Shown here piece after piece: positions 48,001 to 51,000 of a DNA stretch of 64,000 nucleotides. How positions within the stretch are numbered: the first letter of the stretch is position 1; every line of letters begins with the position of its first letter. This DNA is from Candidatus Saccharimonadales bacterium (GTDB lineage Bacteria > Patescibacteriota > Saccharimonadia > QS-5-54-17). The position numbers are program-made. Location of the stretch: positions 61,207 through 125,206 of the forward strand of contig JBBDOS010000003.1 of NCBI GenBank assembly GCA_040876925.1, given 5' to 3'.

Positions 48001-51000
48001 GTAGAGTTAGCACTAGCAAAACTTAGAGCCATAGATATATCTTCACCAGCCGCTATTTTGGCTACAAAACCTGACGTAAAACCATCGCCAGCCCCAGTGC
48101 GATCTAGTACTGGTGAATCTTTGTATAGGCCGGCTTTGTAGGTGTATTCTCCGTCACTAGCACAAGAACCTTTAGCCCCATTAGTAACTACTACAATCTT
48201 GGCATGCTTAGCCAGCTTAGTGGCTAACTCTTCAATCCTGTCTCCCTTCACCAACATTTGAGCCTCTTCCTTATTCAAACTCACCACTGCGAAATTCTCT
48301 AATAGGTCAATTAGCCTCTGGCTTTGCTTTAACTCCTCGTGCCCTGGATTAATAGCTAGCTTAATATCGTGATTCTTAGCGTAATGAATTAATGACTCAA
48401 GTAGCGGGAAATTACCGCTCAGTGATGAGATGTACAACCAGTCAGTACGCAGCTTGGCAAAATGGTCAAAGTCACTAGCGCGTAGCTCCTGGGATACCCC
48501 TCTATAAACTAGGACGGTTCTCTCACCTCTAGGAGCTAGTAGAAGAGTAGAGTATCCAGTAGTGCCGTCTAAATCACACTTAACCATACTGGTATCAACC
48601 CCTAGAGACTGTAAGTCAGTTAAAATATGCTTACCGGCTGGATCATCACCGATTTTGCCCATAAAGCTAACCTCAAAGCCATGTTTCACGAAAGTAGCTG
48701 CAGCATTAGTAGCCCCACCACCAGTCGTAAACATCACCTTATCAAGTTCTAGTTTAGCTCCTAGCGGGAACTGCTCAATAAAATCATGCGTTCTCACATC
48801 ACGCTTAGCTCTAAGTACTTCACCCATCAGTATGACATCTTGGACAGCAGCACCTATGCAAGTAATTTTTATCTTCTTAGTCATTGTGCTTATGATAGCA
48901 TAATTTGACTATCTAAATGGGTATTGCAATGAGGCTATAAATGTTCTAGTATGTAGTACGAATCGCCAATGGGGTGATTTGAACATCGTAATATCTATCG
49001 GCTGAGTACGGGGCTCTAGCTTGAACAAAGCTTGGTTCTGCGAAAAGTCGATAAAAGCGTCCTTTGCTAGTAATAGGAGCAGTTAGAGGGAAGCCTCGAC
49101 GTTCCAGTAGTTATTGCTAGTAAGGGCTCTTTCCGGGAGTTTATCCGCTACACAAGCAGCCCAGTAATTGGGTGTATCGCGTGATGTGTGTCTTGAACAA
49201 CTTAACAGACACGGCTCCCGGTTAGACTTATCCGACTATCCTCCCCGCCTTCCCCTGGTGCTGGAGGGTAGCACGCAGGCTGTCGTCTGAACGTGGCCTC
49301 CCAAGTCACTACTACCAAAATCAGACGCGGTTGCGTGTTACGGGTGCGGTCGGTCCGCTAAAGGTTCAGAGTTCACCGCTCTGTTACTAACGTGGATCGG
49401 CCGCACCCGACCAACTTGAGATCTTGTTAGGAGGTTACCCTTCTAGCATTTAGCACACCTAGTGCAATCTCAAGTTTTTTCTTTTTTATAGATTTACAGA
49501 TTCAAAATATTTAAAACAAAAAAGAAGATCTCCCGCATTGTAGTTCAAAGACTACGAGGCCAAAGACCTTCACTTATAATATTACCAATTCAGAGTGTGT
49601 AATGTCAGAATACACATACGTATAAGAGGCTCTTTTATAATTATCCCTTATATGTCTCCTGAGCTCATACCAGCTGCTCCAAACATATCTATCTTTTCCT
49701 CAACTACTGCTTGAACAGCCGATATGACTTCTGGCATTAACTTAACCACTGCATACTGACTAGGATTATCCGCTAAGACTTTTTCTAAAGTCTTACGAAA
49801 AGCGTAGCGCATATCAGAATTAATATTAACCTTACTAATACCATTAGCGATAGCTTCGCTGTAATAGTGCTCTGGTGTTCCTGAGCCACCGTGCAGACTA
49901 AGAAAAGCATGTTCTGGTAAGTTAGCCTTAATAGATTTAAGCAACTCTATATCCAGCTGTTTAGGAACAGGATATTTACCGTGCAAATTACCGATAGCCA
50001 CCGCGAAAGTATCTATACCAGTAGCTTCTATGAAATTGCTAGTCCCTTCTGGACTAGAGAATGTTTTTCTGATCTCTTCGTAATCTATCTCATCTTCATG
50101 AACATTGGAGCTACCCCCGAAATAGTGAGGTTCACTCTCTACTAATGCCCCGGTGGTTTTAGCATACTCAACCACCTCCTTAGTAGCTGCAATAATCTCC
50201 TCATCGCTAGCATCGTGATTGGCTTGAGAGATATCGATATGGATAAATTCATAACCTACATCTATAGCTGCTTTAGTCTCTGCAACTGAGGGTGAATGAT
50301 CTAGGTTGATATATAGCTCTACACCGTATTCTTGTCGGTAGTTATCAACCATATCTCGGATGTTTTTCAATCCCATAGCCTTAACCTCGGAAGCTGATAC
50401 CTCTACCATAGCTGGAGCTTTTTTAGCATCCATAGCCTGAACTACAGCTATTAGAGTTTCCTGGTTATCTATATTAAAGGCCCCGAGGGCATACCCCTCT
50501 GATTTGGCTTTCTCGTATGCTGCTCTAGCTTGTGTGATATTACCGCTCATATATATAATCCTTACTTTATTAATCCTACTTGATGTTTATTTTATGTGAC
50601 TTAGGAGCAGATTGCGACTTAAGTTTAGCTTTACTAATTTTCTGCTTGGTAGATTTGGCTGATTTAGTCTTGGGCTTGGTCTTGGTGGTAGATTTCTTCT
50701 TAGTAGATTTTTGGGGAGACTTAGGCGTAGTTTGAGCAGCTGTCTTTTTAAGCTTGCCGGGTCGCTGAGATTCATAAAATTCCTTAATTTTTTTAGCTAC
50801 TCCTGCTCCATCTAAACCGAACTCTGATATTAGCTGATTAGGATCACCTGATTCACCAAATCGGTCCTCTATACCTATACGTAGTTGAGGAGTAGGTGCT
50901 TGTTCTGATAGCACTTCAGCAATTGCTCCACCTAAACCACCGGCTATTTGAGCCTCTTCAACGGTCACTACTAAGCCAGTTTTTAAAACACTGGTTAGAA

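Follow-up and report, generated by a model that had tools for sequence, protein, structure and literature searches.

A probable gene for a large, previously uncatalogued structured RNA between fba and pfkB in a subclade of Saccharibacteria

What occupies the largest internal gene-free gap in a 64,000-nucleotide stretch of the genome of a Candidatus Saccharimonadales bacterium (contig JBBDOS010000003.1, positions 61,207 to 125,206; hereafter the window)? The gap covers 763 nt (48885-49647) between a pfkB-family kinase gene (47907-48884, minus strand) and fba, the gene for class II fructose-bisphosphate aldolase (49648-50550, minus strand), the neighbours named in an earlier note on this DNA. 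Within it lies a segment, 48960-49487, that the note took for an unassigned structured RNA: either a divergent rnpB or ssrA, or another large non-coding RNA (ncRNA). The last of these survives, backed by homologs with covariation. The evidence points, with a probability of roughly 0.72, to a stand-alone plus-strand gene whose product, a highly structured ncRNA of 528 nt, belongs to a previously uncatalogued family, is specific to one Saccharibacteria subclade and would act in trans. The novelty lies in its standing outside the catalogued families; a mechanism is not part of the claim.

The GC-rich, ORF-free character ascribed to the segment (ORF, open reading frame) is present as described. 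Its GC content is 0.502, where the window as a whole has 0.406 and the flanking genes have 0.41-0.43, and its gap is the sole gene-free gap in the window with GC above the window average. The only ORF of at least 40 amino acids inside 48960-49487 is a 40-aa frame with a TTG start at 49168-49290, which is not credible. A frameshifted protein gene, the alternative raised in the earlier note, was looked for by ORF search and tblastx and was not found: tblastx between lineages gave no reading-frame signal, the similarity being confined to close pairs and falling in several frames on both strands, and a search across lineages found no conserved or shared small peptide. A frameshifted or decayed protein gene was accordingly rejected. 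The plus strand folds with a minimum free energy (MFE) of -220.6 kcal/mol and a z score of -8.9 against dinucleotide shuffles, compared with -2.5 for the minus strand, and in all ten homologous gaps the strand opposite to the operon folds well beyond shuffles, with z from -7 to -10.8. G.U pairs, which would give A.C mismatches on the opposite strand, make up 34 of the 372 paired cells (9%) in the family alignment, in line with the earlier assignment to the plus strand.

The predicted gene has signals of its own at both ends. A putative sigma-70-type promoter has its -10 box ending 7 nt short of 48960, where the 5' hairpin starts, and an arrangement of the form TTGnnn-17/18-TAnnAT, 7-9 nt ahead of the first G of this hairpin, recurs in six of the six long-form lineages examined, despite their divergence. 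At the 3' end, a stem followed by a U-run is found in all ten members, on the RNA-sense strand only. The boundaries proposed earlier coincide with the transcript ends inferred from the conserved promoter and terminator. The locus has the generic attributes of a stand-alone ncRNA gene: a predicted promoter and terminator of its own, no coding potential and a structure kept by covariation. The features, with homologous loci cited by L numbers (L001 being the closest relative), are these:

48960-49487, plus strand: whole inferred transcript of 528 nt, taken as a stand-alone structured ncRNA from its lack of an ORF, its GC content, its folding and its homolog in L001
48924-48929 and 48947-48952, plus strand: putative sigma-70-type promoter, -35 box TTGCAA and -10 box TAGTAT with a 17-nt spacer, from sequence and conservation
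48960-48980, plus strand: H1, a hairpin of 8 bp at the 5' terminus with UGAAC after it (most relatives have UGUAC), from the MFE fold and RNAalifold
48996-49053, plus strand: D2, a hairpin domain with an internal loop near its base, GAGUAC (49004-49009) opposite GCGAAAAG (49040-49047)
49059-49127, plus strand: D3, a long hairpin with a conserved small tip hairpin, GAGG-GAAG-CCUC (49086-49097)
49128-49226, plus strand: D4, the core domain, with closing helix CCGGGAG (49133-49139) / CUCCCGG (49215-49221)
49236-49337, plus strand: D5 and D6, hairpins with C-rich apical loops UUCCCCU (49250-49256) and CUCCCAA (49298-49304)
49341-49409, plus strand: D7, a long GC-rich helix of 18 bp (49341-49358 with 49392-49409) and an apical hairpin loop UCACC
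49410-49412, plus strand: C/A-rich single-stranded linker, ..GACCAAC.., consensus (N)ACCAAC(U)
49413-49487, plus strand: D8, a predicted branched intrinsic terminator, with outer stem ACUUGAGAU/AUCUCAAGU around two hairpins (stem 49413-49477) and U-run 49478-49487
48892-48900, minus strand: extended -10 box TGCTATCAT, 7 nt ahead of the ATG of pfkB (context, outside the RNA)

Homologs were reached through the neighbouring genes. The 80 best aldolase relatives, taken as species representatives, come from metagenome-assembled genomes of Saccharibacteria or related Patescibacteria; the order tktC-fba-pfkB-hyp413 is conserved in nearly all of these loci, with fba and pfkB typically 10-80 nt apart. 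Among the 80, a spacing of about 700 nt occurs only in the window and in L001, whose fba is 88% identical. Further carriers were found by searching with the faster-evolving pfkB protein and then the contigs around the locus: the gap measures 545-920 nt in L085, L086, L087, L088 and L095, is cut by the contig end in L096, and is shorter in L090 and L091 (378 nt) and in L094 (443 nt). The RNA itself is 450-680 nt long in eight lineages and about 320-370 nt in two (L090 and L094).

These RNAs diverge fast. With the window RNA as query, nhmmer matched only L001 (E 1e-23) and did not link the other lineages, which have 65-70% pfkB identity. As MAFFT put the hairpin strands of diverged members out of register, covariance models were seeded from single sequences instead. 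The model built from the 3' module of L085 alone (D7-linker-D8, 145 nt), searched against 1.41 Mb on both strands, matched L088, L087, L095 and L086 at E 5e-12 to 1.4e-5, in each case over its full length, in the fba-pfkB gap and on the expected strand, and matched nothing in the other ~80 loci. A second-round model (R2), made from five sequences that did not include the window and searched against 2.8 Mb, recovered L001 (E 1.6e-7), the window at 49340-49480 on the plus strand (1.2e-4) and L096 (2e-4). With filters off, the short forms in L090 (E 0.003) and L094 (E 0.04) were the top matches, at the syntenic site. For the 5' and central part, a model seeded with D2-D4 of L085 (R3) matched L088 (3e-13) and L095 (3e-9) and, with filters off, L086 (0.013).

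Covariation carries most weight in the 3' module. Across five lineages and 49 pairs, 96.9% of cells are paired and 34 pairs have changed on both sides; shuffles give 75 +- 2% and 13.8 +- 2.7 pairs, with 0 of 500 reaching either value, and sliding the partner strand gives 33-48% and 2-5 pairs. Across eight lineages and 48 pairs, 94.1% of cells are paired and 43 pairs are compensated, against 65% (maximum 71) and 22 pairs (maximum 33) in shuffles and 37-50% and 10-18 pairs in slid controls. In the 5'/central module, where the slid control alone was applied, three lineages and 72 pairs give 92.9% paired and 21 compensated, against 29-42% and 0-2 pairs. In a less circular check, MFE folds computed independently for close pairs of sequences share 67 bp between the window and L001 and 91 bp between L085 and L088 at identical alignment columns, where column-shuffled controls average 1.3 and 2.1 (maxima 8 and 13); 12 of the shared pairs have changed on both sides in each comparison. 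Selection on the fold is indicated: the sequence diverges fast, yet compensatory changes preserve the helices.

In the long forms, 8-10 hairpin domains follow one another in collinear order (H1 and D2-D8 in the window), and the 5' hairpin followed by GUAC, GAAC or GUAA stands at the start of every long-form homolog. The D2 loop, (G/A)AGUA(A/C) // (A/G)GAAA, recurs in the window, L085, L086, L088 and L095, with degenerate versions in L001 and L087; from its sequence pattern alone, it looks like a loop-E or sarcin-ricin-like motif. The D3 tip has the consensus nnGGG(G)AWGCYCnn in relatives, with related tips in L085, L088, L087 and L095, and it covaries, GAGG/CCUC in the window corresponding to UUGG/CCAA in L001. 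The D4 closing helix is invariant between the window and L001 and reads CCAGGAG/CUCCUGG in L085 and L088, CCAGGAG/CUCUUGG in L086, CCAAGGGC/GCCCUUGG in L095 and CCAGGGA/UUCCUGG in L087 (consensus CCRGGAG/CUCCYGG). Two further domains, D6b and D6c, are limited to the longer forms. D6b, a small hairpin capped by a GNRA tetraloop (GUAA or GAAA), lies at RNA positions 378-397 in L085 and 352-372 in L088 and could be a tertiary-contact element. A candidate loop-loop complementarity in L085, between GGGGCA of H1 and UGCCCC of D6a, is not conserved in L088.

D7 contains the long-range helix noticed earlier, which is real and slightly longer than the 15 bp claimed for it (18 bp, G.U included). In the family it is a GC helix of 13-18 bp with an invariant core, GGnCG/CGnCC; in five lineages pairing is complete (100%) along the 13-bp basal helix, and 6 of its pairs are compensated. 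The helix strands are partly palindromic (CGGCCG, GTCGAC, CGATCG) in the window (49341-49409), in L085 (770-857) and in L088 (460-590). ACCA(A)C follows D7 in six of the ten representatives. D8, the 3' stem and T-tract of the earlier description, keeps its three-way layout and U-run in ten out of ten, with compensatory changes in all 11 pairs of the outer stem.

The known range is patchy. At the fba-pfkB site L002 and L092 have no gap; by the pfkB identity matrix, L002 is nearest to L090, and L092 to L094, among the relatives sampled. The site is likewise empty in about 78 other Saccharibacteria loci, with about 20 kb around fba searched per genome. The short forms retain mainly D7, its C-rich loop and D8. 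One old insertion, inherited vertically and followed by reduction or loss, would be the simplest history. The RNA is under selection on its fold, yet appears dispensable in some lineages.

Several candidates outside this site were set aside. In L002, a module resembling D7-linker-D8 lies at 13733-13929 on the minus strand, between an LDcluster4 gene and uvrB, with a long GC helix (AGUUGGCUGGCUG/CAGCCGGCCAGCCAGCU), a CA-rich linker and a terminator; as a relocated copy it was rejected (E 0.11), being the 3' end of the transcript of a small, 82-aa ORF. A metagenome pattern scan for the CCGGGAG/CUCCCGG helix gave two matches, in L082 and L083, both by chance: the first lies inside a 605-aa ORF, the second is GC-rich and coding-like, and neither is similar to the RNA by nhmmer. 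At the aldolase position itself, L092 (2945-3940) and L094 (2526-3557) carry a class I aldolase (PF00274) where other Saccharibacteria carry class II (PF01116), which looks like non-orthologous displacement at a fixed locus.

Some points weigh against the account given so far. The alignments behind the pair counts were fitted to the model, which inflates pairing, and the harshest pairwise test, with the structure taken from one sequence, is weak: pairing survives in 23 of 43 and 18 of 35 double changes, where shifted controls give about 35-41%. Register errors by MAFFT in the variable tips probably contribute to this result. Membership of the window is significant for the 3' module; the top match of R3 in the window is its own D2-D4 (48995-49226), but with E 0.39, and the 5' half would belong to the family by collinearity and shared motifs. 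The promoter call depends on conservation, a generic promoter scan not having listed it, and the transcript ends, promoter and terminator are predicted from sequence and conservation. The family as known comprises about 10 sequences from about 7 lineages. Finally, absence was scored at the fba-pfkB site alone, and a copy of the RNA could lie elsewhere in those genomes.

The insertion appears to have changed the operon around it. The RNA gene runs antisense to an operon otherwise conserved as tktN-tktC-fba-pfkB, with a split transketolase (tktN/tktC) on the far side of fba, and interrupts it between fba and pfkB. The extended -10 box TGCTATCAT, or a close variant, is found at the pfkB-proximal end of every insertion-bearing gap (L001, L085-L088, L090, L094 and L095) and is absent from L002, which has no insertion. 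The presence of this box in insertion-bearing genomes implies that the operon is broken there; pfkB appears to have gained its own promoter after the RNA gene split the operon, and its mRNA is probably leaderless. Many genes of the window have a TGnTAnnnT or TAnnnT box about 7 nt before the ATG and no Shine-Dalgarno sequence (for example upstream of 15815-17158, 44641-46599, 11068-12231 and 5473-6753, all on the minus strand), and GGAG or AGGA occurs at only ~14 of 51 starts, a pattern that suggests widespread leaderless transcripts in this genome. Directly downstream of pfkB, a 413-aa protein (hyp413; 46662-47903, minus strand) has no Pfam domain and is conserved in many Saccharibacteria, carriers and non-carriers of the RNA alike. 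Three more gene-free gaps of 500-660 nt (8386-9049, 39492-39990 and 57368-57923) are AT-rich, with GC 0.33-0.36.

How might such an RNA act? The ten RNAs have 13 apical loops with CCCC, where dinucleotide shuffles give 2.3 +- 0.95 (maximum 4), and a C-rich loop sits at the tip of D7 in eight of the ten. In the proposed scheme, the folded RNA would act in trans by presenting a few conserved recognition elements to a partner: the D2 AGUA/GAAA loop, the CCRGGAG/CUCCYGG and GGnCG/CGnCC helices and, above all, the C-rich loops on long GC stems. In Firmicutes, C-rich loops of RNAIII and RsaE/RoxS pair with G-rich ribosome-binding sites. By analogy, the preferred mechanism, put forward tentatively, is that the C-rich loops pair with G-rich RNA targets. 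The searches for targets came out negative or gave no information. The Shine-Dalgarno sequence of this genome is AGGAG-like, GGGG is present at only 4 of 51 start regions, and whole-RNA duplex prediction among the genes within the sampled loci gave no ortholog that is consistently the top target across lineages. The one specific candidate, a 9-nt complementarity between D5 and the tktC start region, is at about chance level, is lost in L001 without compensation and was rejected. Targeting of ribosome-binding sites by the C-rich loops was likewise discarded, the Shine-Dalgarno sequence not being complementary and neither a consistent target nor a covarying pairing having emerged. The best guess, held with low confidence, is an RNA that acts in trans, with the C-rich loops and the conserved helix and loop modules recognising a partner.

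About as likely as pairing, and thus also a tentative reading, is that the RNA serves as a protein-binding scaffold or as a sequestering RNA, a component of a ribonucleoprotein (RNP) comparable to OLE or 6S RNA. Loop-E-like internal loops are often protein-docking sites. The conserved loop-E-like D2 loop and the invariant CCRGGAG/CUCCYGG and GGnCG/CGnCC segments may dock a protein; the size and domain number exceed what seed pairing needs, and the Shine-Dalgarno sequence is not rich in G-runs. No candidate partner gene co-occurs in the flanks examined, however, and the short forms keep little beyond D7, the C-rich loop and D8.

A more ambitious reading, and a rather unlikely one, is that this subclade-specific class of large multi-domain RNA (0.45-0.7 kb) is a ribozyme or the core of an RNP that serves the episymbiotic lifestyle. 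Few bacterial ncRNAs exceed about 400 nt and have many covarying helices. Where the function is known (rRNAs, RNase P, tmRNA and group I and II introns), it is demanding biochemistry, which is why the unexplained ones (OLE, GOLLD, ROOL and raiA) are under active study. Genomes of the Candidate Phyla Radiation (CPR) are so reduced that 0.5-0.7 kb of structurally constrained, non-coding sequence with a promoter, where it is kept, argues for a real function, and a literature search found no report of a large structured ncRNA from the CPR or Saccharibacteria, nor anything usable on the annotation of rnpB or ssrA in cultured Saccharibacteria. Were the ribozyme or RNP-core reading true, no large 'ornate' ncRNA class would have been described from the CPR before this one, and the invariant helix segments and the loop-E module would form its active or binding site. 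Whatever the function, the locus displays an evolutionary pattern: an RNA gene inserted antisense in a core sugar-metabolism operon, with a new downstream promoter and repeated shrinkage or loss. The narrow known range, about ten sequences, limits its general importance pending a function.

An origin as a mobile or selfish element (a group II intron without an ORF, a miniature inverted-repeat transposable element or a prophage RNA), now in decay and with no present function, is improbable. An insertion in a conserved operon, limited to one subclade and several times shortened or lost, would fit such an origin, as would the partly palindromic strands of D7. Compensatory changes across lineages that differ at about one-third of pfkB residues argue instead for selection on the fold, and every lineage has kept promoter and terminator. 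Neither the window nor 1.4 Mb of related sequence contains a second copy, and the searches gave no match in IMG/VR (pattern search) or in GenBank phages (blastn), no match to a group I or II intron, ribozyme or HEARO-type model, and no neighbouring transposase, reverse transcriptase or integrase.

That the operon strand is the functional one, the element being a structured intercistronic spacer of an fba-pfkB mRNA with a role in processing, stability or attenuation, is very unlikely. The element does lie inside a conserved operon, and the minus strand also beats shuffles in L085 (z -5.6), L088 (-7.3) and L086 (-10.2). Yet the folding excess is larger in the RNA sense in seven of the eight RNAs tested on both strands, with L086 tied. 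Moreover, the conserved -35 and -10 boxes face in the RNA-sense direction, the U-run follows the terminal stem on that strand alone, and pfkB has its own -10 box at the ATG in insertion-bearing genomes. The R2 model scores 81-135 bits on the RNA-sense strand against 16-31 bits on the opposite one, where the weak matches are put down to the partial palindromes of D7.

The RNA belongs to no family catalogued in Rfam 15 and is neither rnpB nor ssrA. Scans with cmscan used 4227 models and covered the window at gathering thresholds, 48850-49660 at E<=10 and six homolog loci at E<=1. The sole match in the whole window at gathering thresholds is a tRNA-Leu at 6853-6939 (minus strand). Within 48850-49660 only two chance snoRNA matches appeared at E<=10, and the RNase P, tmRNA, SRP and ROOL/GOLLD/OLE models for which the earlier note had suggested a scan gave none. 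The six diverged homologs matched no family at E<=1; across the scans there were only chance snoRNA or miRNA matches, far below gathering scores. OLE, ROOL, GOLLD, raiA, HEARO, SRP and all other Rfam 15 families gave no model match, nor did group I and II introns or small ribozymes; the site lies between genes, and neither a reverse transcriptase nor an endonuclease is encoded close to it. ARAGORN detected no tmRNA in the window, permuted forms included. The two ends do not pair, the 5' one forming a local hairpin and the 3' one a terminator, so there is no P1 or acceptor-like terminal helix. No tRNA-like domain of the tmRNA kind, with an acceptor stem from both ends, a T-arm and a 3' CCA, was found, nor a tag reading frame, and no ORF is conserved.

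The likenesses to RNase P RNA noticed in the sequence dissolve on comparison. The string ACAGACACGGCUCCCGG reads UCAGGCGUGGCUCCCGG in L001, and in other lineages it belongs to the CUCCYGG strand of an ordinary helix; GGGUGCGGU becomes GUGGCCCGG in L001 and CGGCCGGUC in L085, and is not conserved. There is no P4 pseudoknot of CR-I (GAGGAAAGUCC) and CR-V (ACAGAAnnCGGCUUA) strands; the RNase-P-like strings of the window sit in ordinary local helices and are conserved neither in L001 nor in L085-L088, and no invariant single-stranded core like CR-I/CR-V runs through the family. RNase P RNA, tmRNA, SRP RNA and every other Rfam family were rejected for want of matches. A highly divergent rnpB or ssrA missed by standard models owing to fast CPR evolution is hardly tenable: its size, high GC and many helices would suit a housekeeping RNA, and the scan, which covered the 64-kb window, found no rnpB or ssrA elsewhere in it, but partial local matches would show in the Rfam scans, the turnover is fast, and the RNA is shortened in L090 and L094 while its site is empty in their sister lineages and many others.

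Set beside known systems, this RNA resembles in outward form RNase P RNA of type A (RF00010), likewise GC-rich, multi-helical, several hundred nucleotides long and encoded by a stand-alone gene in an AT-rich genome; it differs in having no covariance-model match, no P1 and no P4 with CR-I/CR-V, in its patchy presence among close relatives and in its fast sequence turnover. With tmRNA (RF00023) it shares the size class and the stand-alone gene, and it differs in having no tRNA-like domain or tag frame and in escaping detection by ARAGORN and Rfam. The likeness to RNAIII of Staphylococcus aureus (RF00503) and to RsaE/RoxS is one of form only: C-rich apical loops (UCCC/CCCC) on stable stems and, as for RNAIII, a string of hairpins of about 0.5 kb with its own promoter and terminator. 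Against it stand the lack of homology and of an encoded peptide, and the tested target pairing, which failed covariation. To OLE (RF01071), ROOL (RF03087), GOLLD (RF01998) and raiA (RF03072) it has no homology and, in comparison with them, far fewer invariant nucleotides and no link to phages or tRNA clusters. What it has in common with them is a length of 450-680 nt with many covarying helices, an independent transcription unit, a narrow range and an unexplained role; what sets it apart is its host, a reduced-genome CPR episymbiont.

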